Positions 33,216-63,943 of a stretch of 64,000 bases of DNA are shown one piece after another. Numbering within the stretch: the first letter of the stretch is position 1; the number at the start of each line of letters is the position of its first letter. Made by a program: the position numbers and the translations under genes. A model generated the notes under the pieces. It was not told the DNA's origin. It searched no databases and saw only the letters and a list, made by a program, of their open reading frames with translations. The DNA is taken from the IMG/VR virus record IMGVR_UViG_3300017917_003727. One strand, written 5' to 3'. This DNA comes from a virus (Duplodnaviria > Heunggongvirae > Uroviricota > Caudoviricetes).

Positions 33216-34409
33216 ATGTTAACAAAATTAGAATACGTTTGGTTAGACGGTTATACACCTGAACCAAACCTCAGAAGTAAAGTAAAAGTATGTAGACTTG
33301 ACAGTTGGAGTGTTGAAAGATTGCCCGAATGGTCCTTTGATGGTTCATCAACGAAACAAGCTGAAGGACACTTTTCAGATTGTATTTTGAAACCTGTGAG
33401 AGTTTACGAAAATCCATTAAACAAAGGTACAATTCGTTCTTTGTTGGTACTATGTGAGGTAATGAATCCCGATGGTACGCCACACAGTACAAACACAAGA
33501 GCTAAAATTGGTGAAGAGCAAGAAGATTTGTGGTTTGGTTTTGAACAAGAATATACCATTATGAAAGATGGTAGACCATTGGGTTTCCCTGATAATGGAT
33601 ACCCTGAACCACAAGGTAAATACTATTGTGGCGTTGGTAATGGACAGGTTCATGGTCGTGAGTTTGTAGATAAACACATGGAGTATTGTATCAAAGCGAA
33701 CATTGATATTACAGGTACAAACGCTGAAGTTCTTTTAGGTCAGTGGGAATACCAAGTATTTTCAAAGGGTAAACTTAAAGCTGGAGACGACCTATGGGTG
33801 TCAAGATACATTCTTCAACAAATGTCAGAAGATTACGGATTTAAAATTGAGTTCCATCCAAAACCTGTTCAAGGTGATTGGAATGGTTCAGGACTACATT
33901 GTAACTTCTCAAACAATAGAATGAGAAATGAGGGTGGTGAAGAATACTTCAAAAACATATTTAGAGCTTTTGATGTTAGACATGAATTACACATTGAAAA
34001 TTATGGTTCAGATAATCATCTTCGTTTAACTGGTAAACATGAAACCCAATCAATCGATAAATTCAGTTGGGGGGTTTCAGACAGAGGTTCGTCAATAAGA
34101 GTTCCATTGTCAACAGCTAAAGAGTGGAAAGGATATGTCGAAGACCGCAGACCAGCATCAAATGGTGACCCATATAAAATCGTTAATGTAATTTCAAGTT
34201 CTATTGAGTTTGCAGAAGTATTAGACAAAACAAATTCAAACATTACTAACAACATAGATTTGTTAAATATCTCTAAAAAATACGGTACTTTAACTGATGA
34301 AGAACTTTTGGCGGAATTTGTAAAAGATACTGAATTTGATATGAGTGAAACCATGGCCCACACCAATGAAACAATAACTGAAATTAAGTTTAATCCTGAA
34401 AATAATTAA
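33216..34409 (+). CDS. Glutamine synthetase type II (eukaryote-like GlnII) homologue with C-terminal extension
   Basis: EYVWLDG...LRSKVKV N-terminus, GKYYCGVGNGQVHGREFVDKH, TGTNAEVLLGQWEYQV, FHPKPVQGDWNGSGLHCNFS blocks align to GS-II catalytic motifs. Confidence 0.7.
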   Translation: MLTKLEYVWLDGYTPEPNLRSKVKVCRLDSWSVERLPEWSFDGSSTKQAEGHFSDCILKPVRVYENPLNKGTIRSLLVLCEVMNPDGTPHSTNTRAKIGEEQEDLWFGFEQEYTIMKDGRPLGFPDNGYPEPQGKYYCGVGNGQVHGREFVDKHMEYCIKANIDITGTNAEVLLGQWEYQVFSKGKLKAGDDLWVSRYILQQMSEDYGFKIEFHPKPVQGDWNGSGLHCNFSNNRMRNEGGEEYFKNIFRAFDVRHELHIENYGSDNHLRLTGKHETQSIDKFSWGVSDRGSSIRVPLSTAKEWKGYVEDRRPASNGDPYKIVNVISSSIEFAEVLDKTNSNITNNIDLLNISKKYGTLTDEELLAEFVKDTEFDMSETMAHTNETITEIKFNPENN

Positions 34410-39029: not shown

Positions 39030-39977
39030 AATTAAGGGAAAATGTTCTTTAACTTATGAATATGTCCAACACAGGACAAAATATAATGGACCCCTCCATC
39101 TATTTCGTTCAGTGTTGATAACAGACATAATTCGGCGGTTTAGCGTCGATACAAGATAACCCCAGCAATGGGACTATAGGGGCGAGAGTTTCAACAGAAC
39201 GGGTAGCTCGGTGTCACGAAAGTGGCTCACAACTAAACAGATTACCTACGGGTAGGTCCTCATGGGCAACAGCTGAGAGGAAATATTCATTCTGACTACG
39301 TGAGGTGTCAGGATTGAGGTGGAGACACCAACAGGAAAAGGTAAAGGGAATGGTTCGACTCAGACGCCAATCTGATGTAGGGCTAGGTCGCCAGTTCATC
39401 ACAGGTATCCAAAGGGTAACCTACCGATATCAAGTTGAACCGTAGTCTTGGCGGATTACAGAAAGGTGAGTGGTATTTCCTTCTTCAAAAGAGAAGCTAG
39501 CCACCTCAGAGCTCATCTTTCATTACACTCACTATGTTGATTTAATTATGAAAAATTAAAACTACAGAAAAGGAAAAGTCTCTGAGCGGTTAAGCTGAAA
39601 GTCACCTAATTCCTCGAGTGGCGACACTAACGGGGAAATTGACAGGACCCCAAGTCCTTCAGTTTTGACTAAGAAAGTCCTAGTACCTGGGCACGGGTTT
39701 AGGGAGTCCGCAAGATTCCATAGAGACGAGTAAAAGTTGAGTAGGATTAACCGATACGAGTGATTGACGTAAACAATCGGTGATGACTCAATACAGATGG
39801 CAACATTTGTGGACAATGTGAAGAACCTCTAGTAAAGGATAATGTCACGAAAGATGGGTCAAGAATACGTGTAGTCTCAGCGTTTCAGCCTTACCACCCC
39901 TTGGATAGTATCTTTGGGCCGACTTCGAAGTTTCAAATGTACACCCCACGATAAACCAATTTCGTGGGGTTTTTTTA
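39030..39977 (+). ncRNA. Candidate large (~950 nt) structured non-coding RNA of unknown class
   Basis: ORF-free on the sense strand, GC ~50% in a 33% GC genome, consensus promoter and intrinsic terminator on the same strand; not recognised as rRNA, tmRNA, RNase P or group II intron by motif inspection. Confidence 0.5.
39944..39977 (+). terminator. Rho-independent terminator
   Basis: CCCCACGA-taaaccaatt-TCGTGGGG then T8. Confidence 0.65.
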
Positions 39978-40931: not shown

Positions 40932-40956
40932 CCCCTCACAAACGAGGGGTTTTTTA
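40932..40956 (+). terminator. Rho-independent terminator
   Basis: CCCCTC-acaaac-GAGGGG then T6. Confidence 0.6.
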
Positions 40957-42362: not shown

Positions 42363-42388
42363 GGGTGGAATTATTCCACCCTTTTTTT
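42363..42388 (+). terminator. Rho-independent terminator (third of three tandem hairpins, 42312-42388)
   Basis: GGGTGGAAT-t-ATTCCACCC then T7; preceded by CTTGTTT/AAACAAG and CTGAAC/GTTCAG hairpins. Confidence 0.55.
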
Positions 42389-47999: not shown

Positions 48000-49013
48000 A
48001 TGGAAAGAAAATTAGCAACAATCAGGATTATTACGGACATCAGACCTATTGAAGGTGCTGATAAGATTGAACTTGCCAGTGTTGGCGGTTGGAATGTTGT
48101 TGTTGCCAAAGATGTTGGACATAAGGTTAACGATATGGTAATTTATTGTGAGATTGATTCTTTTCTTCCAATTAGAGAAGAGTTTGAATTCTTACGTAAA
48201 TCGTCTTACAAGAAAATGGGTGACCAAGAAGGTTTCCGTCTGAAAACTATTAAACTTCGTGGTCAGGTTTCTCAGGGACTTATTCTTCCTATTCACGTTT
48301 TACCTTTGGGTGAAATGGTTCACGAAGGTCAGGATGTAACCGAAATGTTGGGTATTGTTAAATATGAACCACCAATTCCTGCAGAACTTGCTGGTAAAGT
48401 TAAAGGTCAGTTCCCATCATTCTTACAAAAGACCGATGAAGAAAGGGTTCAAAACTTGGTTGGTGAATATGAGAAATATAAATTAACTTCTTCTCATCAG
48501 TTTTATGTTACTGAAAAACTTGATGGTTCATCCTCAACATTCTACATCAAAGATGGTGAGTTCGGTGTATGTTCTCGTAATTTAGAATTACTTGAAACGG
48601 AAGGTAACACGTTTTGGAAAGTAGCTCGTGAAATGAACTTGGAAGAAAAACTTAAATCAACAGGTAAAAACATTTGTTTACAAGGTGAACTGATTGGTGA
48701 AGGCATTCAAGGAAATCCATACAAGATTAAAGGTCATAGAGTTATGTTCTTCAACGCCTTTGATATTGATAAACACCAAAGAATGACCATGCCTCAGTTC
48801 TTAGAACTTATGGAAAGTTTAGAACTCCAACACGTACCATGTTTAGAATTACCTTTCTTGTTACCAAGTACAGTTGAAGGTATGTTAAAATATGCTGAGG
48901 GAACATCTGTACTTAACAGACAGACTGAAAGGGAAGGTGTTGTAGTAAGGTCTTACGATAATAAGATTAGTTTCAAAGCAATTTCTAACAAATTTTTGTT
49001 GGAGGAAAAATAA
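48000..49013 (+). CDS. ATP-dependent RNA ligase, Rnl5-like (N-terminal OB-like domain plus nucleotidyltransferase)
   Basis: KxDG motif I (VTEKLDGSSSTFY) and N-terminal IRII...ADKIELASVGGWNVVV domain as in DraRnl/NgrRnl-type ligases. Confidence 0.55.
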   Translation: MERKLATIRIITDIRPIEGADKIELASVGGWNVVVAKDVGHKVNDMVIYCEIDSFLPIREEFEFLRKSSYKKMGDQEGFRLKTIKLRGQVSQGLILPIHVLPLGEMVHEGQDVTEMLGIVKYEPPIPAELAGKVKGQFPSFLQKTDEERVQNLVGEYEKYKLTSSHQFYVTEKLDGSSSTFYIKDGEFGVCSRNLELLETEGNTFWKVAREMNLEEKLKSTGKNICLQGELIGEGIQGNPYKIKGHRVMFFNAFDIDKHQRMTMPQFLELMESLELQHVPCLELPFLLPSTVEGMLKYAEGTSVLNRQTEREGVVVRSYDNKISFKAISNKFLLEEK

Positions 49014-49014
49014 A

Positions 49015-49206
49015 ATGATTACATTTGAATTAAACGAAAAACAAGAAAAAGAACTTAAAGAATGGCAAGAGGCAATTAAAAAAGTATTCGGCGAATACGG
49101 TTCATTTGATTATATCTTTACACCTACTGGTATAGGTAATTGTGTTAAAGTTTATAGTCACTTAGCCAAAACAGAATTGGAATTGACAGATGTTGACTCT
49201 TGGTAA
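49015..49206 (+). CDS. Small hypothetical protein
   Basis: 63-aa ORF. Confidence 0.3.
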   Translation: MITFELNEKQEKELKEWQEAIKKVFGEYGSFDYIFTPTGIGNCVKVYSHLAKTELELTDVDSW

Positions 49207-49228
49207 AAAATTTAATATAATTAACATT

Positions 49229-49666
49229 ATGAACATAAAACAAGCATTGAAAGAAAAAAACAAATTGGCGAAGAAGATTACCGATTTGATGGACAGAGTG
49301 AACAGATATAACTCAATTGATGAGGGTGGTGTTCGTTCATACGAGCCTGAGACAACATTGAGAGTTGCAACCGATTACGTTGAAGAATTGGTTGAACTTA
49401 AAACAAAAATTCACAAAGCAAATGCTGAGGTATATGAGAAGATTTTCCGTATGTCTGAGTACAAGTCATTTGTGAAATATTTGAGGTCTTTGAACTGTAC
49501 CGAAGGAACTTTAGTTCAAAGAGGGTATGGTGACACAACCACTCGTCAAATGACCACAGTAATCACTGAGGTTCAAAGAGACCAAATGGTTGAAAGATAT
49601 GAGTCAATGATTGACCAAATTCAATCTGAGTTGGATGCTCACAATGCAACCACTCAGATAGATTAA
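49229..49666 (+). CDS. Hypothetical protein
   Basis: ATG 49229; ORF-track start 49190 is probably too far upstream. Confidence 0.4.
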   Translation: MNIKQALKEKNKLAKKITDLMDRVNRYNSIDEGGVRSYEPETTLRVATDYVEELVELKTKIHKANAEVYEKIFRMSEYKSFVKYLRSLNCTEGTLVQRGYGDTTTRQMTTVITEVQRDQMVERYESMIDQIQSELDAHNATTQID

Positions 49667-49851
49667 GACCTTGTGGTTGTTGTCAGTGTGTAAGTTTTTA
49701 TAGGTATCCACCTATTTACATCATTCTACTAGACATGTGATATTTGAAACTGATACGTATTCAACATTCAGAAGTTCAACAGGTCAACAGATTCATTCCT
49801 CAATAACCTCAAAACTCTTTTGGAATAATTTATAACACGGACAGCCACAGA

Positions 49852-49878
49852 CCCTCACCCAAAAGGTGGGGGTTTTTT
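49852..49878 (+). terminator. Rho-independent terminator, 'CCCTCAC...GTGGGGG' family copy 1
   Basis: CCCTCACC-caaaa-GGTGGGGG then T6. Confidence 0.65.
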
Positions 49879-49889
49879 AAATAAACTAA

Positions 49890-49918
49890 TTGACAATAAA
49901 ATAAAAAAATACTATAAT
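49890..49918 (+). promoter_or_regulatory. Sigma-70-consensus-like promoter TTGACA-N17-TATAAT
   Basis: Exact hexamers and spacing, 10 nt upstream of the YceI gene. Confidence 0.45.
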
Positions 49919-49928
49919 TTAAACACTT

Positions 49929-50453
49929 ATGAAAAGAATGACAATTGACAACACCCACTCAGAGATTGGGTTTAAAGTAAGACATCTTATGATTTCAACA
50001 GTTAAAGGTAATTTTAATACTTTTTCTGGTGGAATACAAGAAGACGGAAACGTATTTGTATCCATAAACGTTGGTTCAATCAATACAGGTAACGTAGACC
50101 GAGATAATCATCTTAAGTCTGCCGATTTCTTCAACTCTGAAGAATACCCTACAATTAATTTTGGAGGTAAGATGAGTGAAGACATGTCTACTGTTACAGG
50201 TGAGATTACAATCAAAGGGATAACCAAAGAAGTTACACTTAACACCGAATATAACGGTATGGGTGTTGACCCTTGGGGAAACACAAAGCACGGATGGGAA
50301 ATTACAGGTTCAATCAACCGTAATGATTTTGGTCTTACATGGAACGCTCCACTTGAAACAGGTGGTGTATTGTTAAGTGAAGAAGTTAAACTTAGCATTG
50401 ACGTTCAGATGGTAGAAGTTGTGGAAGAAATGGCTGTAGAATCAGCTGAATAA
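49929..50453 (+). CDS. YceI-family protein (moron-like insert)
   Basis: YceI-like blocks (FKVRHLMISTVKGNF, SINTGNVDRDNHLKSADFF, RNDFGLTWN); own promoter and terminators on both sides. Confidence 0.6.
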   Translation: MKRMTIDNTHSEIGFKVRHLMISTVKGNFNTFSGGIQEDGNVFVSINVGSINTGNVDRDNHLKSADFFNSEEYPTINFGGKMSEDMSTVTGEITIKGITKEVTLNTEYNGMGVDPWGNTKHGWEITGSINRNDFGLTWNAPLETGGVLLSEEVKLSIDVQMVEVVEEMAVESAE

Positions 50454-50477
50454 TCTTCACTCAATTAAAACATTAAA

Positions 50478-50504
50478 ACCCTCACTCAAAAGGTGGGGGT
50501 TTTT
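50478..50504 (+). terminator. Rho-independent terminator, family copy 2
   Basis: CCCTCAC-tcaaaa-GGTGGGGG then T5. Confidence 0.65.
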
Positions 50505-50516
50505 GTATTTATAGAC

Positions 50517-50708
50517 ATGAAGGAATTCATCAAATTTTTAATTATTTGGATTGCTAGTAACCTTTCAATACCCTTTTGGGTTATTGGACATGTTCATTTA
50601 ACCATGAATATTTATCAAGATATCTACGAGATTATTGCTTCTTTTGGTATGAATATTATTGTTGCTTTAGGTTTTTGGTTAGATTGGAAATCACAGAAAA
50701 AAACATAA
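50517..50708 (+). CDS. Small membrane protein
   Basis: Two hydrophobic helices; ATG 50517 in frame within ORF-track 50493. Confidence 0.35.
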   Translation: MKEFIKFLIIWIASNLSIPFWVIGHVHLTMNIYQDIYEIIASFGMNIIVALGFWLDWKSQKKT

Positions 50709-50775
50709 CATATTGTTAATATTTAATTAACACTATTACAAGATTTTTTTACTACTTATTGGTGGTAAAAAATTT

Positions 50776-53007
50776 ATGTCATTACTATACATAGCACTAT
50801 TCAACCTAATACCAGGTCCGATAGACACAGCAAAAGCTGAAACCATTGGTCAAGTTACCGTCAAGGCTTCGTCAAAAAAAGAAACAGTATCTTCTGTAAT
50901 TAATATTCAAAGAAAGAGTTTAACAATAATGGATGCAGTGTCATCCGAATCAATTAAAAAAACACCTGACAGAACAATTGGGGATGTTTTAAAAAGAGTT
51001 GGTGGTACATCAATACAAAATGATAAGTTTGTAGTTGTTAGGGGTCTTGCTGATAGATACAATTCGGTTTTAGTAAATGGTTCAATCATAGGTTCAACAG
51101 AACCTGATAGGAAATCATTTTCATTTGATTTAATACCATCAAATACAATTGATAATTTAGTTGTTTACAAAACCGCATCACCTGATTTACCTGGTGATTT
51201 TTCAGGTGGAGTAATAAAACTAACAACTAAAGTGGTAGACTCAAAATCAAAATCATTTGATTTTGGATTAGGATATGGAACGTTAAGTTCTTTTAGAAAT
51301 TCTTGGCAAATATCATCATATGTTTTACCTAATAATTTTTTAACTACCAAAGAATTTAGAGCATTATCAAGTGAGGCAAGACACGTAGAGTCACAAAAAA
51401 TAACACAATCTTTTAACCCAACACAAGGATTTAATATCCCTAATTTGACTCTTGTTTATAATCAGGGTAACATGACCAAAAAGTTTTCTTATTTGACAAA
51501 TTTTACATTAAGAAATTCACATAATATTACCACAACACAAAGAAAAGATTATATGTCGGGTAATGATTTAATGTATGATTATACCGACAAGATTTATACT
51601 AACACAACAAGTTTTGGTGGAATTGTAAATTTGAAGTATAAAAAATATGATTTTAAAAATAATATTAATTATTTGAATGAAAATTCTATTACAAATAGAA
51701 ACGGAATTAACTTTGATAATGAACAGTTAATTACAAGTAGTAGTTCTAATCACAATAGAAAGTTTATTTTGATGTCACAATTTGTGACCCCAAAGTACTC
51801 ATTTAATTATACATTGTTACACAGAAGTCAGCCAGATTATAGAGTTAATCCATTTGCCAAGAACATCACATCAAATGGTGATAGTTCGTTTGTATGGAGA
51901 GATTCTTACAGGTTTTGGAGTACCATGAACGAACACACTTTTGGTGGTTATTACAACGATACGATTGGTAAATTCAAATATGGTTTCTACGAACAATTAA
52001 AATACAGAAATTTTGGAGCGAGAGTTTTCAGATACGAACCAAATTACATTTTAAGTGAAATTACGAACAACACCGACAAGTATAATGCATATTCTAACTT
52101 ACTTTCAGGATATGGAATGTATTCTAAAACTTATAATAAGTTTACTACATCAGGTGGAATAAGAATTGAAAATCAAATATTCAAAGTTAATACATATGAT
52201 TTTAGTGGGAGACCACAACAAGTTAATAGAAATTATCTTGATGTATTACCATCATTAAACTTAATCTATGGTGTTAGGAATAATAAAAATATTAGAGCTT
52301 CAGTTAGTAGGACAGTTGCTAGACCTGAGTTTAGAGAAGTAAGTAATTTCTCTTTCTATGACTTTGTTAGAAACGCACAAGTAATTGGAAACCCAAAGTT
52401 ATTAAGAACACAAATAACTAATATTGATTTAAGATACGAGATATATCCATCATCAAAAGAAATTATCACATTCTCAACATTCTATAAAAAATTTACAAAT
52501 CCAATTGAACAAATTGTTGATAATGGTTCGGTACCAAGCAACTTAATTTTAACATTATCTAACCCTAAACAAGCAACAATATACGGTGGAGAATTGGAAA
52601 TAAGGAAATCAATTAATAACAATTTCACAATATATTCCAACTTGTCTTATTTTAAATCTGAAGTTAATATTCAAGGGAGAACAAGACAATTGCAAGGACA
52701 ATCACCATACATTATCAACACAGGATTGTATTATACAAAAGGAAAGTACTCTGTTAATATGTTCTATAATAGAATTGGAGAAAGAATATCGGCAGTAGGA
52801 TTTCAAGGGTATCCCGACATTTATGAAAATGCAAGGGATGTAATTGACTTGACAATTCAATACCAAACAAAGAAGATATCAATTAAATTTGGTGTGTCAG
52901 ACTTGTTAGGGCAATACTCAAAGTTTTATCAAAATAATCAAAATAGAACATTAATTAAAACAAATAACGAACAAACAATAAATCTAAATATAAATTACAA
53001 ATTATGA
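50776..53007 (+). CDS. TonB-dependent receptor-like outer-membrane protein (plug plus beta-barrel)
   Basis: Plug-domain blocks (VRGLADRYNSVLVNGS, RKSFSFDLIPS, VYKTASPDLPGDFSGGVIKLTTK); long Y/N/T-rich barrel-like remainder; atypical N- and C-termini. Confidence 0.55.
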   Translation: MSLLYIALFNLIPGPIDTAKAETIGQVTVKASSKKETVSSVINIQRKSLTIMDAVSSESIKKTPDRTIGDVLKRVGGTSIQNDKFVVVRGLADRYNSVLVNGSIIGSTEPDRKSFSFDLIPSNTIDNLVVYKTASPDLPGDFSGGVIKLTTKVVDSKSKSFDFGLGYGTLSSFRNSWQISSYVLPNNFLTTKEFRALSSEARHVESQKITQSFNPTQGFNIPNLTLVYNQGNMTKKFSYLTNFTLRNSHNITTTQRKDYMSGNDLMYDYTDKIYTNTTSFGGIVNLKYKKYDFKNNINYLNENSITNRNGINFDNEQLITSSSSNHNRKFILMSQFVTPKYSFNYTLLHRSQPDYRVNPFAKNITSNGDSSFVWRDSYRFWSTMNEHTFGGYYNDTIGKFKYGFYEQLKYRNFGARVFRYEPNYILSEITNNTDKYNAYSNLLSGYGMYSKTYNKFTTSGGIRIENQIFKVNTYDFSGRPQQVNRNYLDVLPSLNLIYGVRNNKNIRASVSRTVARPEFREVSNFSFYDFVRNAQVIGNPKLLRTQITNIDLRYEIYPSSKEIITFSTFYKKFTNPIEQIVDNGSVPSNLILTLSNPKQATIYGGELEIRKSINNNFTIYSNLSYFKSEVNIQGRTRQLQGQSPYIINTGLYYTKGKYSVNMFYNRIGERISAVGFQGYPDIYENARDVIDLTIQYQTKKISIKFGVSDLLGQYSKFYQNNQNRTLIKTNNEQTINLNINYKL

Positions 53008-54224
53008 AAAAATTGATTCCATTTATCATGGTATTATTATTGGGTTTGGGTTCATGTAAACCCGAAGAACCAATAGTTCCAACTGCAAACACTGAACTTG
53101 TTGGAACATTAACTGAAAACAAAACTTTAACTGCGGACAAAGTTTGGAGTCTTAAAGGTTATGTTTATGTACCTGAAGGTATTACATTAACTATTGAAGC
53201 GGGAACCAAAATTGTTAGTGACGTTACTGAAAAAGGTGCATTGTGTATTGAAAGAGGTGCTAAAATTTATGCTAATGGAACTGCGGACCAACCAATTATT
53301 TTTACATCAGGACAGTCTTCACCAAAACCTGGTGATTGGGGTGGATTGATAATTTTAGGAAACGCTCCAACTAATAAACCAAATCCAACAATTGAAGGTG
53401 GTGTAGGTAGACCCTATGGTGGTGTTGATGAAAGTGACAACAGTGGTGTGTTAAAGTATGTAAGAGTTGAATACGCTGGTATCGCGGCATTTCCTGGTTC
53501 TGAAATTAACGCATTCACATTTGGTGGTGTAGGAAAAGGAACTGTAGTTGATTACTGTGAATCTTACTACGCTAATGATGACGCATTTGAATTCTTTGGT
53601 GGTAATGTAAACTGTTCACATTTAGTGGCTGTTGGAACTGCTGATGATGATTATGATTTTGACTTTGGATATACAGGTACAATAAAATTTGCAATATCAA
53701 AAAGAGACCCATTATTTGTTGATATGGCAGATGCGGGTAATGGTATTGAGTGTGATAATGATGGTACTGGTTCCGTTGCAATTCCAATAACAAAACCTAA
53801 TTTACAAAATTTCACTCTTATTGGTCCTATAGAGTCAACATCTTTATCAAATCACAACTTAGCAATGAGATGGAGAAGAGGAACTGCATTTAATGTTCAA
53901 TATTCTATTTTCTATGGATACATGAAAGGTGGTTTTAGTATTGAATCTGACATCACCGCAGGGTATTTTAATACAGGTATGAGTACAATGTTCAATAATT
54001 ACATATCATCTGTGGATACCGTAAATACAATAAAAACAAGTTCAACATTATTAACAAAAGAAAACATGTTAGCTCTTTGTAGTAAACAAGGAACAATAAT
54101 AACAAGCTCACAAGTTAAACCTTTTGATAATAATTTCCAAACAATTTCAAGTGTGGTAAATGGACAGTGGGGAGCAATCCCTTCGGGTTCCTCAATTTGG
54201 ACTTTGGGTTGGACAAAATTTTAA
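53004..54224 (+). CDS. Lipoprotein, beta-helix-like
   Basis: Signal plus lipobox (LLLGLGSC); G/T/N-rich repetitive beta-strand composition. Confidence 0.45.
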   Translation: MKKLIPFIMVLLLGLGSCKPEEPIVPTANTELVGTLTENKTLTADKVWSLKGYVYVPEGITLTIEAGTKIVSDVTEKGALCIERGAKIYANGTADQPIIFTSGQSSPKPGDWGGLIILGNAPTNKPNPTIEGGVGRPYGGVDESDNSGVLKYVRVEYAGIAAFPGSEINAFTFGGVGKGTVVDYCESYYANDDAFEFFGGNVNCSHLVAVGTADDDYDFDFGYTGTIKFAISKRDPLFVDMADAGNGIECDNDGTGSVAIPITKPNLQNFTLIGPIESTSLSNHNLAMRWRRGTAFNVQYSIFYGYMKGGFSIESDITAGYFNTGMSTMFNNYISSVDTVNTIKTSSTLLTKENMLALCSKQGTIITSSQVKPFDNNFQTISSVVNGQWGAIPSGSSIWTLGWTKF

Positions 54225-54342
54225 AAAAAAATATTTTTGTATTGATACTTTATAATTGTCAAATATATTTATTTCTGATGAAAAAATTGAGACGACATAA
54301 TTATCGAACACAAATAAACAATATTAATATATTATCATTTAA

Positions 54343-54372
54343 ATCCCTTCTCTAATGAAGGGATTTTTTTTG
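54343..54372 (+). terminator. Rho-independent terminator
   Basis: ATCCCTTC-tctaat-GAAGGGAT then T8. Confidence 0.6.
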
Positions 54373-54383
54373 CCCATACGAAT

Positions 54384-55214
54384 ATGAAAAACACAGAAAT
54401 ATATAACGAACTAGTACAGAAGATGAGAGAATTCTTCTTAAAGAGAAATTTCAAAGAAGTTCCTACACAAAGTAGACTATCAATCTTGGCGGCTTGTGAA
54501 AACCCACATTCAGTAAAAACATTTGAATATGGTGGATTACAATGGCCATTACCACAAACAGGCCAAATGTGGTTGGAACATGAACTATTAAAAAACCCTG
54601 AATGGGACGGAGTATTTTGTATTTCAACTTCTTACAGGGAAGAAAAAAATCCAATTGAAGGAAGACACGAAATGATATTCCCAATGTTTGAATTCGAATC
54701 AAAAGGAACTATGAGAGAACTTCACCAACTTGAAGTTAGATTACTTGAACATTTAGGTTTTGAAACACCAGCAATTTGTAAATACGATGATGTTTGTCAA
54801 GAGTATGGTGGTGTTGAAATACTTGAAAACGAACATGAACAAAGAATGTGGGAAGAAAAAGGACCTGTAGTTTCATTACAAAACTTTCCATTAAGAACAA
54901 ACCCATTTTGGAATATGAAACATGGTGGAAATAACATTTATAATAAAATTGATGTTATTCTTTACGGTCAAGAAACAATTGGTTCTGCAGAGAGAAGTTG
55001 TGATGTTGAAGAAATGAAAAACAATTTTTACACAATTGAAAATGGTGCTTACTGTGCAAAGTTGTTTGAATTGTTTGGAAAAGAAAGAGTAGAGAAAGAA
55101 CTTGAAGAATTCTTATCGCTTAATTTCTTCCCGAGATTTGGTGGAGGTATTGGAATGACAAGAATGGCTCGGGCTTACGAATTGATGAAACAAGAACAAC
55201 TACAGATGGTGTAA
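54384..55214 (+). CDS. Class II aminoacyl-tRNA-synthetase-like ligase (AsnA/aspartate-ammonia-ligase-like or EpmA-like)
   Basis: Motif 2 YREEKNPIEGRHEMIFPMFEFE and motif 3 GGGIGMTRM of the class II core; no anticodon-binding domain. Confidence 0.5.
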   Translation: MKNTEIYNELVQKMREFFLKRNFKEVPTQSRLSILAACENPHSVKTFEYGGLQWPLPQTGQMWLEHELLKNPEWDGVFCISTSYREEKNPIEGRHEMIFPMFEFESKGTMRELHQLEVRLLEHLGFETPAICKYDDVCQEYGGVEILENEHEQRMWEEKGPVVSLQNFPLRTNPFWNMKHGGNNIYNKIDVILYGQETIGSAERSCDVEEMKNNFYTIENGAYCAKLFELFGKERVEKELEEFLSLNFFPRFGGGIGMTRMARAYELMKQEQLQMV

Positions 55215-55222
55215 AAATAACA

Positions 55223-55249
55223 AACCCTCACTTAACGGTGGGGGTTTTT
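55223..55249 (+). terminator. Rho-independent terminator, family copy 3
   Basis: CCCTCAC-ttaac-GGTGGGGG then T6. Confidence 0.65.
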
Positions 55250-55259
55250 TATTTAAAAA

Positions 55260-56132
55260 ATGTTTCTTACACTTACCAAAACTATTATGAGTAGGTTAGA
55301 AAAAATAAAGGAACAACACCCTGAGTTGAATGTTACAATCATTGACTTGTTGGCAAGTATGGACCCAACTGATTCATACAAATACTTGGAGTTTTTGGTA
55401 AAAAGACTCAAAGATTATTATCAAGAAGAAAAGGAACAATTAGGTTTACACATTGCCATTGATTTGATAGGTACTGAAAACACCAAGACACTTAATGAGT
55501 ATGAAAAACATTGTAAAGCCAACAGGATTGAGAAAAATGATATAACTCAAATTAAGACTTGGCAAGAAATGAAAAGTGAGGTTAAAAAAGCCGAAGCAAT
55601 TGAAGAACAGAAAAAGAATGAGAAACAAATAAAGAAAATTTTTGAAAATGAAAATTACAAAATTTTAATTCCTCTTTCTTATGAAGCTTGTAAGATTTAT
55701 GGTTCAAATACAAAATGGTGTATAACACAAAAAAGTCATTGGGACACATATTCCAAAAGCTATAACATCTTATTTGTAATTGATAAATTATCAAATAAAA
55801 AATACGCCATTTCAAGAAAGAAAGGTGAACAGACAATTGATGCTTGGGATGAAAAGGATGTTCAAATGAGTCCTTTATTGTTGAAACTTCCACATGAAAT
55901 TATGGATAAGATTGTTGAGACAATATCAAAGGAAAAAACTATTGTTGAAATGGCTAAAAACTTAGTTAAGAAAGAAGAACCAAAACAAAAAAAGATGGAC
56001 GATTATCTACCTTATTTCAACCCAAATAATAGTATCTATTATGATGAAAATCTTATTGGTGAGTTATTTTCAAAATGGATAGACTCAAGTAAAATTCCTA
56101 CAAGTTATTTTTACACTAAAGGAGACGAATAA
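55260..56132 (+). CDS. Hypothetical protein: 'TKWC' paralog domain plus K/E-rich N-terminal region
   Basis: EACKIYGSNTKWCIT...Y...LFVIDK block shared with ORFs 21807 and 28977. Confidence 0.45.
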   Translation: MFLTLTKTIMSRLEKIKEQHPELNVTIIDLLASMDPTDSYKYLEFLVKRLKDYYQEEKEQLGLHIAIDLIGTENTKTLNEYEKHCKANRIEKNDITQIKTWQEMKSEVKKAEAIEEQKKNEKQIKKIFENENYKILIPLSYEACKIYGSNTKWCITQKSHWDTYSKSYNILFVIDKLSNKKYAISRKKGEQTIDAWDEKDVQMSPLLLKLPHEIMDKIVETISKEKTIVEMAKNLVKKEEPKQKKMDDYLPYFNPNNSIYYDENLIGELFSKWIDSSKIPTSYFYTKGDE

Positions 56133-56133
56133 T

Positions 56134-56508
56134 ATGAAATTTGCACTTATAGCACACGACGGAAAAAAGGCGGACATGGTTGCCTTTGTAATGAAAAGAT
56201 TAGAATTCTTCAACAGGGAAGATGTTGAAATATATGCTACAGGAACAACAGGTAAAAGAATTGTTCATGCTGGTGTTGAAAAGGTTGTAACCCTAAACTC
56301 AGGACCAATGGGTGGTGATGCGGAAATTGGAGCCATGGTTGCCAAAGGTGAATTGGAAGGAGTAATATTCTTCAGGGACCCACTTGATAAACACCCACAT
56401 GAACCCGATGTTCAAATGCTAATGAGACTATGTGATGTCCACGATGTACCACTAGCAACAAACTATAAAAGTGGACATATTATGGTTAAGTATTACTCAG
56501 AAAAATAA
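56134..56508 (+). CDS. mgsA: Methylglyoxal synthase
   Basis: FALIAHDGKK, YATGTTG, SGPMGGD, VIFFRDPL...PHEPDV blocks align closely to bacterial MgsA. Confidence 0.7.
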   Translation: MKFALIAHDGKKADMVAFVMKRLEFFNREDVEIYATGTTGKRIVHAGVEKVVTLNSGPMGGDAEIGAMVAKGELEGVIFFRDPLDKHPHEPDVQMLMRLCDVHDVPLATNYKSGHIMVKYYSEK

Positions 56509-56514
56509 AATCAT

Positions 56515-56907
56515 ATGAAAACAAAAATATATTTCAAAGGAGAATTTGAGGGATATGGTGTTGTCATATCTTGGGATAAAAGTAGGAATGATAAAAAGTA
56601 TCAAAATTTTTCATTTAGTAGAGTTCCATCAGCCCGTGAGAATGGATACAAGACAAGAGAATTGAGTTACAATCAAATTGCTGGTGGACAATACACAACC
56701 AAAGAAATCACAAGATACCTTGTAACAGGTTCGTTTGGTTCTTGGATTACTCACAAAACTGAATTGATGGATGAATTTGAAAAAGTAATTAATATTTGTG
56801 TTGACGAATTTATAAAAGATGTCAACAATGAATATTCACTTGACGGAATGATTGGAAGAATATTTATACAACCTTTTGAGAAATTTTTTGACTGGTTAAA
56901 AAAATAA
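56515..56907 (+). CDS. Hypothetical protein
   Basis: 130-aa ORF. Confidence 0.4.
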   Translation: MKTKIYFKGEFEGYGVVISWDKSRNDKKYQNFSFSRVPSARENGYKTRELSYNQIAGGQYTTKEITRYLVTGSFGSWITHKTELMDEFEKVINICVDEFIKDVNNEYSLDGMIGRIFIQPFEKFFDWLKK

Positions 56908-56918
56908 TTGTATATTTG
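56888..56918 (+). promoter_or_regulatory. Promoter TTGACT-N17-TATATTTG, ATG 4 nt downstream
   Basis: Conserved module; overlaps the end of the upstream gene. Confidence 0.45.
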
Positions 56919-56922
56919 CAAC

Positions 56923-57198
56923 ATGATTAAACTATTTAAAGAAAAATTTTTACAGTTGGATTTTGGTATTCAGATGATAATAGTTACACTAACTATTTTA
57001 ATATCAAATCAACTATTGTCCTTCACAACTAAGTTGATGAATTATTCCGACACGTTCGCATTTAATACTGGTCTCATTCTAACCTTTACTTTATTTGTAT
57101 TCCAAGCTTTATTCATATTTTTGGGTATAAAGTCAGTGATAAATTACATAAGAAAAACAAAACAAAATAATATAAATAACAATGAGCAATCTAACTAA
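56923..57198 (+). CDS. Small membrane protein
   Basis: ATG 56923 (ORF-track 56908 is a TTG); three hydrophobic helices. Confidence 0.4.
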   Translation: MIKLFKEKFLQLDFGIQMIIVTLTILISNQLLSFTTKLMNYSDTFAFNTGLILTFTLFVFQALFIFLGIKSVINYIRKTKQNNINNNEQSN

Positions 57199-58048
57199 AT
57201 TCTTGCTTGGACTATCAGTTGTAGTCCTTATGATTTTCAGTTTCACGGGATGTGAGCGTATCGACGCTGGTCACGTTGGAGTAAAAGTAAACCTTTATGG
57301 TAACGGAAAAGGCGTTGATGATGTGACAGAAGTTACTGGTTGGGTATTTTATAACCCAATTTCAACAAAAATTGTTGAGTTTCCAACCTATGTTCAACAC
57401 AAAGAATACAAAGCGATTATGGAAGACGGAAAAGTTGTATCTGACGAATCTTTTGTAATCAACTCAAAAGACGGTTCCGAGTTTCATGTTTCACCACTTC
57501 TTAACTATTCAGTTAAACGTGAAAAAGTTCCTTACATTTTCAACAAATACCGTGTAACACTCGGACAAATTGAAGAAGGATTTCTTAAAACTGCAGTATA
57601 CGATGCGTTTCGTGTTGTTGCTAACTCATATACTGCCGATGAATTGATATCTAATCGTGAATTATTTGAAATAAAAGTAAGAAAAAACCTTGAGGAACAC
57701 CTTGCACCCGAGGGATTTGTCTTGGCACAATTTACTTCTAATCTTGTTTATCCCACTACGTTTAAAAATGCGATTGAAGCTAAGAATAACGCAGTTCAAA
57801 AAGCTTTGACCGCTGAGAATGAAGTTAAAACTGCTGAGGCTCAGGCAAGGATTAAAGTGGCAACCGCAGAAGGTGAAGCGAAGGCGATGTTAACATCCGC
57901 AAAGGCTGAAGCTGAATCTAACAGGTTGAGACAACAAACATTGACACCACTTCTTCTACAACAAATGTGGATTGAAAAATGGAATGGTGGTCTTCCATCC
58001 ACGATGCTGGGTCAAGGACAAAATTTAATGTTCGGACTTAATAAGTAA
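57182..58048 (+). CDS. SPFH/band-7 (prohibitin/HflK-C-like) lipoprotein
   Basis: Lipobox FSFTGC; SPFH core with C-terminal Ala/Glu-rich coiled coil. Confidence 0.6.
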   Translation: MSNLTKFLLGLSVVVLMIFSFTGCERIDAGHVGVKVNLYGNGKGVDDVTEVTGWVFYNPISTKIVEFPTYVQHKEYKAIMEDGKVVSDESFVINSKDGSEFHVSPLLNYSVKREKVPYIFNKYRVTLGQIEEGFLKTAVYDAFRVVANSYTADELISNRELFEIKVRKNLEEHLAPEGFVLAQFTSNLVYPTTFKNAIEAKNNAVQKALTAENEVKTAEAQARIKVATAEGEAKAMLTSAKAEAESNRLRQQTLTPLLLQQMWIEKWNGGLPSTMLGQGQNLMFGLNK

Positions 58049-58058
58049 GACTAACAAA

Positions 58059-58086
58059 ACCCTCACAGAAATGTGGGGGTTTTTTA
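58059..58086 (+). terminator. Rho-independent terminator, family copy 4
   Basis: CCCTCAC-agaaat-GTGGGGG then T6. Confidence 0.65.
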
Positions 58087-58129
58087 TTTGAAATATATAC
58101 TAAAATAAAAATAAAATTATATTGTTAAT

Positions 58130-58375
58130 ATGTTTAAAAAATTTAAATATTTAGATAACACACAAAAATCATTTCTGATTATTGTTACATTATTTTTATC
58201 AAGTAAATTGACTGATTATACGACTCCCATGTTAACTAAAACAGAACCAATAGTACTATATACTGGTTTAGGTTTAACTGTACTTTTGCTACTTATACAG
58301 GGAGTAGCATTATATTTCGGAATAAAAATATTGTTTAAATTGTTTGAAGATTTTAAATCCAACTTCAAGATTTAA
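58130..58375 (+). CDS. Small membrane protein
   Basis: 81 aa, two TM helices. Confidence 0.35.
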   Translation: MFKKFKYLDNTQKSFLIIVTLFLSSKLTDYTTPMLTKTEPIVLYTGLGLTVLLLLIQGVALYFGIKILFKLFEDFKSNFKI

Positions 58376-59120
58376 TTTTCGGTTCACACTTATGACAAGT
58401 GTAAGGGTCATCACCACCCTCAGATAGTTTCCAAGACCAACCACAATCTTCACAAGTTACCATACCATCATCTACAGAAACAGATTCATAAATTTTATTG
58501 GTATCGTTTTTAATCACATAATCATTAATTGCGGTAATATAAAAATCATCAAATACCCCATGATGTCCTTTATAAAATAAATTATTTAATGTGTTTACAA
58601 AATGAGTATGATTAAAAGCCAATCCATCTTCAACGTTCTTATCAATAAAAATTATCAATTCGGCTCTTCGTAAATTTGAAATAATTTTAAATTTCAAATT
58701 TGGATAATGATAGTCTCGAGAATAAACTTTCATTGCTTTTTCTAACATTGGTTTTGCAATTTCGGCGACTTTATCAGAATTTTTGTGAAAATAAACAGTA
58801 ACTTGATACTGTAATTCATCACCAAAATATTTGTCAGTTAATGTGTAAATCTTATCATCTAATCCATTTACGAAATCCCAATAACTTTCATCATAATTTG
58901 GTGAAACCATATGATACATAGATGAATCTATTGTTGCCTCAACACTAAAACCAACAGAGTTTTCTTCTTCGTAATTAAATTCAAGAACACTTTTATATTG
59001 AATGTTTCCGTCAAATGATAACATTGTATTTAACAAGTCATCAACCAAATCTAACTTATCCTGTGCAGATTCGCACATTAATTTTCTTGACCTAAACAGT
59101 TGTTCTTGAAGTATCATCAA
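58365..59120 (-). CDS. Hypothetical protein with C-terminal zinc ribbon
   Basis: CEDCGWSWKLSEGGDDPYTCHKC. Confidence 0.4.
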   Translation of the reverse strand: MMILQEQLFRSRKLMCESAQDKLDLVDDLLNTMLSFDGNIQYKSVLEFNYEEENSVGFSVEATIDSSMYHMVSPNYDESYWDFVNGLDDKIYTLTDKYFGDELQYQVTVYFHKNSDKVAEIAKPMLEKAMKVYSRDYHYPNLKFKIISNLRRAELIIFIDKNVEDGLAFNHTHFVNTLNNLFYKGHHGVFDDFYITAINDYVIKNDTNKIYESVSVDDGMVTCEDCGWSWKLSEGGDDPYTCHKCEPKIKS

Positions 59121-59511: not shown

Positions 59512-59637
59512 ATGTGGGAGTTAATAATCATAAACAAAGACGACAAAGGTTATTTAGTTCAGGCACCAAATGGTGATACACATTGGATGTCAAAACAGGA
59601 CTATCAAAAGTATTTAGAAAAAATCAATAAAAATTAA
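59512..59637 (+). CDS. Small hypothetical protein (41 aa)
   Basis: ATG 59512 within ORF-track 59392; the upstream part overlaps the previous CDS. Confidence 0.25.
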
Positions 59638-60608
59638 TGTACGGCAATTCTAATCTTGATAAAGATTTTGTGGTTGATGATGACCTAATTAAACTTGCCG
59701 AGTTCGAAGCAAGAATCGCTGCGGGTGATAAGATTGAGCCAAAAGATTGGATGCCGAAAGAATATAGAAAACAACTTATCAGGATGATTGAACAACACGC
59801 TCATTCTGAAATTATTGGTTCTTTACCTGAAGGGACTTGGATTACAAGAGCACCAGGTTTTAGAAGAAAATTAGCATTGATGGCTAAAGTTCAGGACGAA
59901 GTCGGACATGCACAATTATTATATTCCGCAGCTGAAACATTGGGTAAAAGAAGAGAAGATATGGTTAATGATTTAATCAATGGCAAATCAAAATATTCAA
60001 ATGTCTTCAACTATCCAGCAAAGACTTGGGCTGATACCGCAATTATAGGTTGGTTAATTGATGCTGCGGCAATAGTTAATCAATTAGCAAACTCAAAAGG
60101 TTCATATGGTCCTTATTGTAGGGCTTTGGAAAGGATATGTTATGAGGAAAGTTTTCACCTAAAACAAGGTCATAGTAATTCTGTATACTTGGCAACAGGA
60201 ACAGAAAAACAAAGAGAGATGGTTCAAGATGCACTTAATCGTTGGTGGAAACCTGTGATACATTTCTTTGGACCACCTGATTCACAGTCAGTTCATTCAG
60301 AAAAGTTAATAAAATGGAAAGTTAAGATGATGACTAACGACCAAATGAGATTTCAATTCTTTGATATGTATGTCCCAAAGATTAGAGAATTAGGATTAGT
60401 AATCCCTGATGAAAAATTAAAAAGAAATGAAGATGGTACTTGGGATTACTCAGACCCTGATTGGAACGAATTCAAAGAAGTAATCAAAGGAAACGGACCA
60501 TGTAATAAAGAAAGATTGGCGGTTAGAAGGATGGCAGAAGAAAGAGGTAGATGGGTTAGAAAAGCTTTACTAAATAAAGATACTAATTATGTTACACCAC
60601 TAGCATGA
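59637..60608 (+). CDS. PaaA-like ferritin-fold di-iron protein (phenylacetyl-CoA epoxidase subunit A family)
   Basis: [25 protein letters not shown]...[13 protein letters not shown] di-iron carboxylate motifs. Confidence 0.55.
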
Positions 60609-60943
60609 ACGAAATTTTTACAATTACAGAAGCGGCTGAAAAACAATTAAAAAAATTAATGAGTGAAGATAAAAAAGTAACTCAGGAACACTTCCTTAGA
60701 GTTGGTGTAAAAGGTGGTGGGTGTTCAGGATTATCTTATGAATTAGCATTTGATAACTTAGAACAAGATGGTGATAATATTTTTGAAACTAACAATATTA
60801 AAGTTCATATAGATAAAAAATCATTCTTATACCTTTTTGGTACTGAACTTGATTTTACTGACGGATTAAACGGTAAAGGTTTTCAATTTATTAATCCAAA
60901 TGCAACAAGAACTTGCGGATGCGGTGAAAGTTTTGCTATTTAA
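60605..60943 (+). CDS. A-type iron-sulfur carrier (IscA/SufA/ErpA, HesB family)
   Basis: C-terminal CGCGESF motif and the upstream Cys. Confidence 0.6.
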
Positions 60944-62050: not shown

Positions 62051-63943
62051 ATGAAAAAAAACTTATTATTATTTTTGACTTTTGCAATGTCCATGCTTGG
62101 ATATTCGCAGACGTGTCCCACACCAACCACGTCGGGAGTTCACATCACGTTAGATTCTACCTATAAAATCGGGACTTATAGGTCGGGTAAAACGAGTGTC
62201 GGATTGTGTTTTTACAATAGCACATCTGAAAAAATCACAGCAGCACAATACAGAGTATTTTACGACAAATCTGCATTTGCTGGCGTAGACACTATAAAAA
62301 CAAAAAACTCATCATTCTCACAGTATCTTCAGTATGTAGATAATCCATCAGGTGGATTTGTAACTATTACAATTACTTACACTGGTACAAATTCGAGTTT
62401 CAATATTCCAAACGGAGCTTTGTTTGAAATTGTATTCAAACATACTTCAGCACTTGCAACAACTTATTTCTCACCAACTGATATGACATTTAATGGTGGT
62501 TCATCTTTTAGTCAAACAGCAACCAACCAAGCGGGTAACGACTACACTTTGACACTAACAAATTTCGGTGGTAAATTCGAGAAACAAAAAATGTCTTACA
62601 AGGGTAAATTTGTTAACGTTCAAGGCTCAGCAGCTAAAAACCTAACAGTATCTTTGGAAAAGAAATTGAAATCAGGTGGAAGTTGGAGTTATGTTCAAAC
62701 ATCGGTTACAAACACATCAGGTAGATTTAATTTTACAGATGTTGAAATCGATACAACTGCTTGGAATGTAAGAATTGCGGTTAAAGGTGATACTATGGGT
62801 GTAGGTTCTATTGTGTCTGTATCAGATGCTCAAAGAATCAACCAATACGTATTAGGAACTCAAACACCAACAGGATTTGATTTCTACACTTCAGATGCTA
62901 ACGGAGATGATAAGATTACAATATCAGACGTTTATAGTGTTTACGGTAGAGTTGGTGGAAGATTCACAGCATTCCCTAATTCAGTTCAAGACGTATTGTT
63001 CTTCACTGAATCTGAATACAACACAATTAATAATTCATCTACAAACTATACTTCAACAATTCAAGGTGTAACTAATTTTACATTTGATATTATTGCAGGT
63101 CAACCTGACTCAGTAACATATTATGTTGTATGTCCTGGTGATGCTAATGGAACAGGTTATCACATGGCTCGTATGATTCCTATTGAAATTGTAAATCCAA
63201 ATAATGCTCACAAACACATTATTGATGTTACAACTCACTACGACGACGAGACACTTAAGACTATTGAAGTTAACTATCCTAAATTAGGTGTTGATGCTGA
63301 AGACGTAGTTTCTATTCCTGTTAAAGTTAAAACAAACGGTATTGAATTAGGTTCATTACAATTGAGTATGAAATACGATTCTACCCTGTTAACATTTAAA
63401 GGTGTGAAAAATGAAAGTAAAACTTCTTATTGGATTTCTTTTGTTAACCCATCTGAAGGTGTTGTTGAGTGGGGTGGTTACGACCCTACAAATAACAAAC
63501 ACTTAATGAAAGATGGTGAGATGTTTTTTACTTTAGAATTCACCGCAAAGAAACCACAAAATGATTGGGGTAAAAGTCCTTTATATGTGACAAGAAAATT
63601 TGCTGGTAATGCATCCGCAACTGATTTAGTTATTACACCAACTGATGGAATTATTCAAGTTTTCAGAATGTCAGGACCAACCAACTTCAAAGATTTGGGA
63701 TTAAGTCCAAACCCTTCAGATAAAACAATGTACTTTACATTTAAAGTATATCAAGATGGTAAAACATCAATTAGTTTATACGACTTGATTGGTAAAGAAC
63801 AAGTAAAAGTAGTTGAAGGTTATTACCCTGTTGGAATCTACACAGAACCTAAAGACATCTCAATGTTATCACCAGGTATGTACTTGGCAATTTTGAGAAC
63901 TGAAGAGAAAGTGGTAGTAAAAAAAGCAATTAAAAACAATTAA
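62051..63943 (+). CDS. Secreted protein with type IX secretion system C-terminal sorting domain
   Basis: N-terminal signal peptide; C-terminal ~80 aa matches the Por/T9SS CTD pattern (KTSISLYDLIGKEQ...GMYLAILRTEEKVVVKKAIK). Confidence 0.6.
   Translation: MKKNLLLFLTFAMSMLGYSQTCPTPTTSGVHITLDSTYKIGTYRSGKTSVGLCFYNSTSEKITAAQYRVFYDKSAFAGVDTIKTKNSSFSQYLQYVDNPSGGFVTITITYTGTNSSFNIPNGALFEIVFKHTSALATTYFSPTDMTFNGGSSFSQTATNQAGNDYTLTLTNFGGKFEKQKMSYKGKFVNVQGSAAKNLTVSLEKKLKSGGSWSYVQTSVTNTSGRFNFTDVEIDTTAWNVRIAVKGDTMGVGSIVSVSDAQRINQYVLGTQTPTGFDFYTSDANGDDKITISDVYSVYGRVGGRFTAFPNSVQDVLFFTESEYNTINNSSTNYTSTIQGVTNFTFDIIAGQPDSVTYYVVCPGDANGTGYHMARMIPIEIVNPNNAHKHIIDVTTHYDDETLKTIEVNYPKLGVDAEDVVSIPVKVKTNGIELGSLQLSMKYDSTLLTFKGVKNESKTSYWISFVNPSEGVVEWGGYDPTNNKHLMKDGEMFFTLEFTAKKPQNDWGKSPLYVTRKFAGNASATDLVITPTDGIIQVFRMSGPTNFKDLGLSPNPSDKTMYFTFKVYQDGKTSISLYDLIGKEQVKVVEGYYPVGIYTEPKDISMLSPGMYLAILRTEEKVVVKKAIKNN

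Follow-up and report, generated by a model that had tools for sequence, protein, structure and literature searches.

A YceI unit present or absent between two hairpins

The 64,000-nucleotide stretch of IMG/VR virus record IMGVR_UViG_3300017917_003727 (Caudoviricetes), hereafter the window, contains four near-identical hairpins (HP1 to HP4) in the same orientation between 49.8 and 58.1 kb. The YceI-family gene located between HP1 and HP2 is variable: the site is filled in the window and in the contigs L144 (100% identical) and L145 (96.9% identical), and it is empty in seven metagenome samples, where the junction lies inside the 27-nt terminator repeat. The best explanation overall, and in our judgement a probable one, is that terminators in a hyperplastic accessory-gene region double as recombination tracts, and that the YceI unit is a moron (extra DNA between genes that are adjacent in a related phage, with its own promoter and terminator) excised by recombination between HP1 and HP2. 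The site thus provides a clean case, in natural populations, of accessory (auxiliary metabolic) genes entering or leaving phage genomes. Gene shuffling at repeated terminators is already known in phages, and what is new here is the phage group, not the mechanism.

The absent unit comprises 627 bp (49878-50504), that is, the HP1 T-tail, a TTGACA-17-TATAAT promoter, the YceI gene and HP2. It is missing from seven junction-spanning contigs (L121, L361, L362, L363, L364, L365 and L366), which come from seven independent samples (JGI 3300029932, ERR14789926, SRR8894380, SRR23548135, SRR8942242, SRR35567240 and SRR23548131). These are short metagenome contigs that carry the RNA-ligase and 158-aa proteins from upstream of HP1. 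On the left-hand side, where they align with the window, their identity to it is 94.3-99.3% (97.8% or more in six of the seven), and their 1-kb left flank (48800-49850) is 99.0-99.5% identical to that of the window. In all seven contigs, the sequence passes from window position 49877 to 50478/50505 through one single hairpin. The loop of this remaining hairpin is of the HP1 type (CCCAAAAGG) in L121 and L364 and of the HP2 type (CTCAAAAGG) in L363, L365 and L366, as expected if the crossovers had fallen to the left or to the right of the one polymorphic base; L361 and L362 carry a variant stem, CCCTCCAC-GAAA-GTGGGGGG, in which the wobble pair is kept. An assembly chimera at the repeat was considered and judged unlikely, since the longest exact repeat between HP1 and HP2 (18 nt) is shorter than the usual assembler k-mers and the seven assemblies agree.

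The filled site is also found in more divergent strain groups, namely the L370 type (97.8% identity in the left flank) and the L376 type (95.4%). Because the contigs without YceI nest with the window (at least 99%) while the distant strains are filled, deletion by recombination between HP1 and HP2 is the most parsimonious reading of both the process and its direction. The reverse reaction could insert the unit. In the mechanism that we propose, HP1 to HP4 would punctuate the accessory region as Rho-independent terminators, and the hairpins would serve as short homology tracts for recombination because they offer 18-27 nt of near-identical sequence in direct orientation. Recombination between HP1 and HP2 would then excise the YceI moron in wild relatives and leave one chimeric hairpin behind. 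The same stem at four sites would reflect lineage-specific spread or homogenisation by such exchanges rather than independent invention. Further indel breakpoints adjoin HP3 and HP4.

The initial annotation had described YceI as standing alone with its own TTGACA-17-TATAAT promoter, and the promoter elements indeed match the consensus at 12 of 12 positions. In distant phages, YceI homologs of 73-81% amino-acid identity lie in quite different neighbourhoods, and they usually retain a TTGACA-type promoter and a related wobble-containing hairpin on the 3′ side. A TTGACA-17-TATnAT-like element lies upstream of the homologs in L156, L157 and L160, and a related hairpin with the wobble lies downstream in L153, L156, L159 and L160. 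In L154, the gene is found in another genomic context and is again flanked on both sides by similar hairpins. Judged by its sequence, the YceI unit is thus a self-contained, relocatable transcription unit, with a predicted promoter and a predicted terminator, which matches the structural definition of a moron; in this region, YceI is the only gene found as extra DNA between genes that adjoin each other in relatives. Its GC content is 0.371 (mean of the genes 0.316, SD 0.031), its GC content at third codon positions (GC3) is 0.291 (mean 0.244, SD 0.042), and its codon distance is +1.6 SD.

Sequence and predicted fold of the hairpins

The core CCCTCAC-N(5-7)-GTGGGG occurs four times in the window, always on the plus strand (49852-49871, 50479-50498, 55225-55243 and 58060-58078), and the four co-oriented hairpins share CCCTCAC-loop-GTGGGGG-T5-6. 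The pattern GTGGGGGTTT matches four times as well, solely at these sites, whereas dinucleotide shuffles gave a mean of 0.01 core matches and never four. All four copies had been located to within 0-3 nt by the initial annotation, which also held that this terminator type is absent from the first 49 kb; a fuzzy search of the window allowing up to six errors on both strands recovered no further copy there or elsewhere. The shared wobble that had been claimed is present in all four hairpins, as a T.G pair in fourth place from the base. The literal consensus AAACCCTCAC-N-GGTGGGGG describes HP2 and HP3, but HP1 starts with GACCC (GACCCTCAC) and the 3′ arm of HP4 is TGTGGGGG. Likewise, the proposed T6 tail is found in HP1, HP3 and HP4, and HP2 has T5.

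The stems consist of 7-8 core pairs, lengthened to 11-12 by A-U pairs, with T5-6 directly on the 3′ side. RNA of the plus strand is predicted to fold at -15.5 to -17.3 kcal/mol (z -3.5 to -5.2), and RNA of the reverse strand folds at -10.8 to -12.9 kcal/mol with an internal C/A mismatch. An A-tract upstream of the GC stem and the T5-6 after it complete the canonical anatomy of a terminator. The distance from the stop codon to the hairpin is 8 nt for the AsnA-like gene, 8 nt for the SPFH gene, 23 nt for YceI and 185 nt for the 158-aa gene before HP1. From this anatomy, the position after stop codons and the T-runs, we infer that HP1 to HP4 act as one-directional intrinsic (Rho-independent) terminators. 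Table 1 lists the hairpins together with other features of the window.

Alternatively, the hairpins could act mainly on RNA, by stabilising 3′ ends or as sites of processing, and so adjust the stoichiometry of a long polycistron, with read-through as the rule and the cassettes not being separate units. Such a role would fit the genes of 46.7-58.4 kb, which nearly all lie on one strand, and the start codons that follow HP2 and HP3 at only 12-18 nt with no sigma-70-like promoter in between. It fits less well with the complete terminator anatomy and with YceI having its own consensus promoter directly after HP1. A role at the RNA level is also compatible with one in recombination and does not replace it, and as the main function we consider it quite unlikely.

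The non-coding spacer that separates the 158-aa gene from HP1 (185 nt) shows 96-100% conservation across strains and is predicted to fold together with HP1 at -54 kcal/mol (z -2.7). This spacer may be a structured 3′ untranslated region or a small RNA.

Table 1. Positions of the hairpins, the YceI unit and other features in the window
Feature	Position	Strand	Description
HP1	49849-49878	+	GACCCTCACC-CAAAA-GGTGGGGG-T6; -17.3 kcal/mol, z -3.5; left edge of YceI unit
HP2	50476-50504	+	AAACCCTCAC-TCAAAAG-GTGGGGG-T5; -16.0 kcal/mol; right edge of YceI unit
HP3	55222-55250	+	AAACCCTCAC-TTAACG-GTGGGGG-T6; -15.5 kcal/mol; follows AsnA-like stop
HP4	58056-58085	+	AAAACCCTCACA-GAAA-TGTGGGGG-T6, GNRA tetraloop; -17.2 kcal/mol; follows SPFH/Band_7 stop
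Predicted sigma-70-type promoter	49890-49918	+	TTGACA-17-TATAAT; -10 element ends 10 nt before YceI ATG
YceI-family gene	49929-50453	+	174 aa; Pfam PF04264, E 4e-43
158-aa gene	49190-49666		upstream of HP1
Non-coding spacer	49667-49851	+	158-aa gene to HP1
Different terminator-like hairpin	54341-54366	+	AAATCCCTTC-TCTAAT-GAAGGGATTT-T7; between lipoprotein and AsnA-like genes
Variable segment with m81	58090-58385	+	directly 3′ of HP4; m81 (81-aa membrane protein gene) at 58130-58375
Other terminators (A-tract, GC stem, T-tract), different stems, first 49 kb	10351, 23075, 26196, 28711, 35917, 40932, 42363		
(A/G)TATTTATA sites, examples	195, 12257, 15883, 20705, 42390, 50506, 62019	+	
(A/G)TATTTATA sites, examples	10903, 28695, 38512, 41991, 46583, 59122	-	
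Sigma-70 family factor	11427-12248	+	RpoD/RpoS-like, 273 aa; PHROG 351, E 1e-52
GOLLD RNA	39461-39883	+	full length; Rfam RF02032, 299 bits, E 1e-84

Strain variation in the rest of the region

The initial annotation had proposed that the four hairpins bracket three moron-like cassettes. This description holds for YceI, a promoter-gene-terminator unit that varies between conserved flanks and whose junction falls precisely within the hairpin. Exchange does not involve the second and third cassettes as wholes; they vary gene by gene. The second is moreover split by the terminator-like hairpin between the lipoprotein and AsnA-like genes (Table 1), which had been overlooked. In the long syntenic contigs L370, L372 and L376, HP1 to HP4 are found at the same places and the differences concern single genes. 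L376 has a 500-bp insert with a 147-aa gene between the AsnA-like stop and HP3, just 5′ of HP3. In L372 (5940-5975 versus window 55138-55224), an 85-bp deletion leaves the AsnA-like gene fused at its 3′ end to the 5′ edge of HP3. The coding sequence removed starts within GGTGGGGGT, which codes for the GGG motif and is identical to the hairpin 3′ arm. The m81 gene, directly 3′ of HP4, is absent from L146-L148, L370 and L376, and a divergent allele is found in L150 and L151. Other insertions lie away from any hairpin: an 87/88-aa gene between MgsA and the 130-aa gene, to which the L370 type adds a 220-aa gene, and two genes at about 44.14 kb. The more distant L141 has hairpins of the same family at the equivalents of HP1, HP3 and HP4 and different genes in between, which fits persistent punctuation with fluid content. 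In related phages, the YceI, AsnA-like, MgsA, SPFH and lipoprotein genes are found in quite different neighbourhoods, with the gene order shuffled.

Several of these observations weigh against recombination at the terminators as the general explanation for the region. YceI is the only indel with hairpins at both ends, and in the same strains other indels take place at hairpin-free junctions (between MgsA and the 130-aa gene, and at about 44.14 kb). By a rough estimate, four of the five indel sites in 49.6-58.4 kb abut a hairpin, as against four of about 13 junctions (P about 0.03), which is suggestive only. Termination and promoter activity are both predictions. The short distance from HP2 and HP3 to the next start codon leaves no room for a sigma-70 promoter, and if the hairpins terminate efficiently, the expression of the genes that follow is unexplained, although the TATTTATA motif may serve this purpose after HP2. 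In addition, the counts cover the 64-kb window, and the hairpin could be common elsewhere in the genome. Finally, near HP2 the identity drops sharply, but from the TonB-dependent receptor gene onwards and not from the hairpin. We had considered the drop in L121, from 98.7% to 83%, as a mosaic breakpoint at the hairpin and rejected this reading, because identity does not fall until the receptor gene starts, about 250 nt past the hairpin.

The TonB-dependent receptor gene (50776-53007, and 53004-54224) shows 62-81% nucleotide identity between strains, with flanks at 95-100%; the identity returns to 87-91% late in the adjoining lipoprotein gene. This pattern of nucleotide divergence is similar to that of a surface protein under diversifying selection or allelic replacement. 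As for composition, a comparison of cassette and core genes, which had been suggested as a check, gave no foreign signature: the cassette genes deviate from the other genes by no more than about 1 SD in GC3 and about 2 SD in codon distance, and we therefore rejected foreign origin of the cargo as a strong compositional signal.

Distribution of the hairpin beyond the window

We then asked how specific the hairpin is to this phage. The exact stem with A- and T-tracts is found in at least 120 IMG/VR contigs with GC contents of 30-63% and unrelated flanks, and also in bacteria, in at least 120 contigs from many phyla. This occurrence indicates a generic terminator sequence and not a signature of the clade; for the same reason, the hairpin was discarded as a host marker, as the scan of bacterial contigs gave no information on the host. 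The local density is nevertheless exceptional. Within the clade of the phage, the exact hairpin occurs four times in 1.08 Mb around AsnA orthologs and three times in 0.39 Mb around RNA-ligase orthologs, as compared with four times in 8.2 kb here, about 100 times the density of the wider clade. The 3′ flanks of 80 AsnA orthologs contain many different hairpins or none, and three have this stem or a near variant. The idea that a terminator travels with each gene was accordingly rejected for AsnA; it is partly true for YceI. Local density against rarity in the clade suggests lineage-specific spread or homogenisation instead of a clade-wide standard.

The same data bear on the simplest alternative, namely that the hairpins are ordinary intrinsic terminators whose stem is convergently favoured, and that indels lie near them because both are sited between genes. 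The identical stem in so many viral and bacterial contigs agrees with this, as do the loops, which among the IMG/VR matches listed are mostly the generic GNRA or UUCG tetraloops, and so do the several indels of the same strains at junctions with no hairpin. Convergence would not, however, account for the variable sites after AsnA in the 80 relatives, for the hundredfold local density, or for a YceI junction that seven samples place inside the 27-nt repeat, in both chimeric forms. We regard ordinary terminators alone as a rather unlikely explanation, and recombination between terminator repeats remains the preferred one.

Could the hairpin itself be mobile? In IMG/VR, the wobble stem CCCTCAC/GTGGGGG is found in at least 120 stretches, the perfectly paired CCCTCAC/GTGAGGG in 71 and the shifted-wobble CCTCCAC/GTGGGGG in 26, and unrelated phage contigs carry many identical copies, for example L058 with 13 in 14 kb. 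Such an excess would be expected if the hairpin were a selfish repeat, similar to repetitive extragenic palindromic (REP) sequences or miniature inverted-repeat transposable elements (MITEs), or a site for a dedicated recombination enzyme similar to the attC site of integrons, carrying cargo along. Yet these counts are not de-replicated and come mostly from low-GC aquatic contigs, so that shared ancestry may inflate them and the excess is a hint only. The element is no longer than about 27 nt; apart from its stem, it has no terminal repeats, and it shows no target-site duplication. Integrases, transposases and homing endonucleases were all missing from the families matched by the ten HP1-HP4 genes and r251 (m81 was unscanned). 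Both the integron and the REP/MITE readings were rejected as their defining features are absent, and we consider a mobile element of this kind highly improbable.

A broader idea is that the exact wobble hairpin is a horizontally spreading, portable terminator that promotes recombination and offers a common short homology for the exchange of promoter-gene-terminator units between unrelated aquatic phages and bacteria. It would explain the IMG/VR excess, the amplification in certain lineages (four copies in the window, five in L159 and 13 in L058) and the siting at indel junctions. If true, genomes could swap such units through this common homology, but we think it unlikely.

In the unrelated phage contig L058 (IMGVR_UViG_3300042197_000954, 36% GC), the 13 copies of CCCTCACC-GAAA-GGTGGGGG-T6 lie between 415 and 14140, and one of them has GAAT. 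After most of them, a conserved motif, TTTTGTCTGGAAAA...GTATGAC, comes at a distance of about 45-60 nt. By its layout, this array is a putative terminator-promoter repeat, similar to the promoter-early stem-loop (PeSL) and built on the same hairpin. A near cousin of the repeated hairpin, with the stem CCCCTC/GAGGGG, is the terminator at 40932 in the window itself.

The phage and its other genes

The window has a GC content of about 31%, and nearly all genes in 46.7-58.4 kb are on the plus strand. IMG/VR relatives reach about 320 kb, and the window is therefore part of an uncultured freshwater jumbo phage, which looks large and probably lytic. Megablast of 49.0-58.5 kb against GenBank phages gave no match, and exact-protein look-ups found no record of the AsnA-like or the 290-aa protein. 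Matches to PHROG, Pfam and NCBIfam include a primase, an exonuclease, SbcC/SbcD-like proteins, an RNA ligase, two DNA methyltransferases and a sigma-70 family factor, that is, generic replication and repair functions for the most part, with no T4 hallmark structural gene in the window. The sigma factor also matches many NCBIfam RpoD models, all below their cut-offs, and could recognise the TTGACA/TATAAT promoter of YceI in a host with promoters of a different kind. No transfer RNA was found in the window.

The host is probably a member of Bacteroidota. This is suggested by the OMP_b-brl_3 receptor family, by the lipoprotein signal and by a weak, sub-threshold C-terminal Por_Secre_tail match (type IX secretion sorting domain; E 1e-5, 25.7 bits, cut-off 27) in a 630-aa protein (62051-63943, plus strand). 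Most of the gene assignments made previously for the cassettes were borne out: Pfam confirms YceI, the TonB-dependent receptor (Plug and barrel), the MGS domain and SPFH/Band_7, and MgsA (methylglyoxal synthase) is above the NCBIfam cut-off. The AsnA-like protein has family support only as a core similar to class II aminoacyl-tRNA synthetases.

A second sequence signal is associated with gene starts. In 14 of its 22 occurrences, the motif (A/G)TATTTATA precedes the ATG of an open reading frame in the same orientation by 3-30 nt, in most cases by 3-6 nt, as compared with an average of 19% for permutations of the same composition. It directly follows a terminator hairpin twice (42363-42381 and HP2), making a composite terminator/start unit; after HP2, the sequence reads GTATTTATAG and then the ATG (50517) of the small membrane protein. 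The motif is probably a phage-specific promoter or start signal, to judge from this placement.

Host-type metabolic genes are dense in the window (33216-34409, 56134-56508, 59637-60608 and 60605-60943) and include glutamine-synthetase-like, methylglyoxal synthase and PaaA/PaaC-like genes. The gene after the PaaA-like one may be HesB/IscA-like, going by its sequence. The 81-aa (58130-58375) and 96-aa (56908-57198) membrane proteins are paralogs (30% identity, E 2e-5), and an 88-residue domain is common to the 290-aa protein (55260-56132, with a weak PcfJ-like match) and the 599-aa protein at 28977-30776 (E 4e-7). The full-length GOLLD RNA is the sole Rfam match in the window, and its stretch has a locally raised GC content of about 37%.

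Comparison with known systems

Integron cassettes resemble the YceI unit in being co-oriented modules of a gene and an imperfect hairpin. The attC sites, however, are 57-141 bp long with defined boxes, as against a hairpin of about 27 nt with a T-run here. Integron cassettes are usually promoterless, whereas YceI has its own promoter, and no integrase family was matched in the family-library scans of the ten HP1-HP4 genes and r251, with m81 unscanned.

Morons have reportedly been defined in lambdoid and other phages (Juhala et al. 2000; Hendrix et al. 2000). The YceI unit resembles them as extra DNA between genes that are adjacent in close relatives, with a predicted promoter and factor-independent terminator of its own and a host-type auxiliary function. 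The classical morons belong by definition to temperate phages, where the prophage expresses them, while the phage studied here looks large and probably lytic. Furthermore, YceI differs only mildly from the mean in GC content, and the moron definition does not include a terminator repeated in direct orientation at the flanks.

Beside the classical morons, the closest likeness is to the PeSLs, in which a stem-loop and a sigma-70 promoter form a repeated motif; they lie in the hyperplastic parts of T4-type genomes (Arbiol et al. 2010, PMC2839356; Comeau et al. 2014, PMC4122927). Their diagnostic arrangement is an open reading frame between two PeSLs in one phage and a single chimeric PeSL in a relative, and recombination between PeSLs with excised mini-circles has been proposed (PMC2839356, PMC4122927). 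The window shares with them repeated intergenic stem-loops as (here predicted) terminators, with G-T stem pairs that the PeSL figure legend also marks; the siting of all copies in a hyperplastic region (49.8-58.1 kb) beside variable small or auxiliary genes; YceI between HP1 and HP2 as against a single hairpin with an HP1- or HP2-type loop in the contigs that lack it; and a sigma-70-type promoter attached after HP1, possibly with TATTTATA in this role after HP2. The differences are that the conserved repeat here is the hairpin of about 27 nt alone, whereas the composite PeSL motif measures about 100 bp; that the sigma-70 promoter follows HP1 only, with HP3 and HP4 having no shared promoter; that PeSLs come from T4-type phages, while the PHROG matches of the window are to generic replication and repair proteins; and that mini-circles were proposed for PeSLs, while excision is here read from contig junctions. 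Thus, the logic of PeSLs and morons appears to extend from T4-type and lambdoid phages to uncultured freshwater jumbo phages, probably of Bacteroidota, and repeated terminators could mark recently exchanged cargo genes in metagenomic phage genomes.

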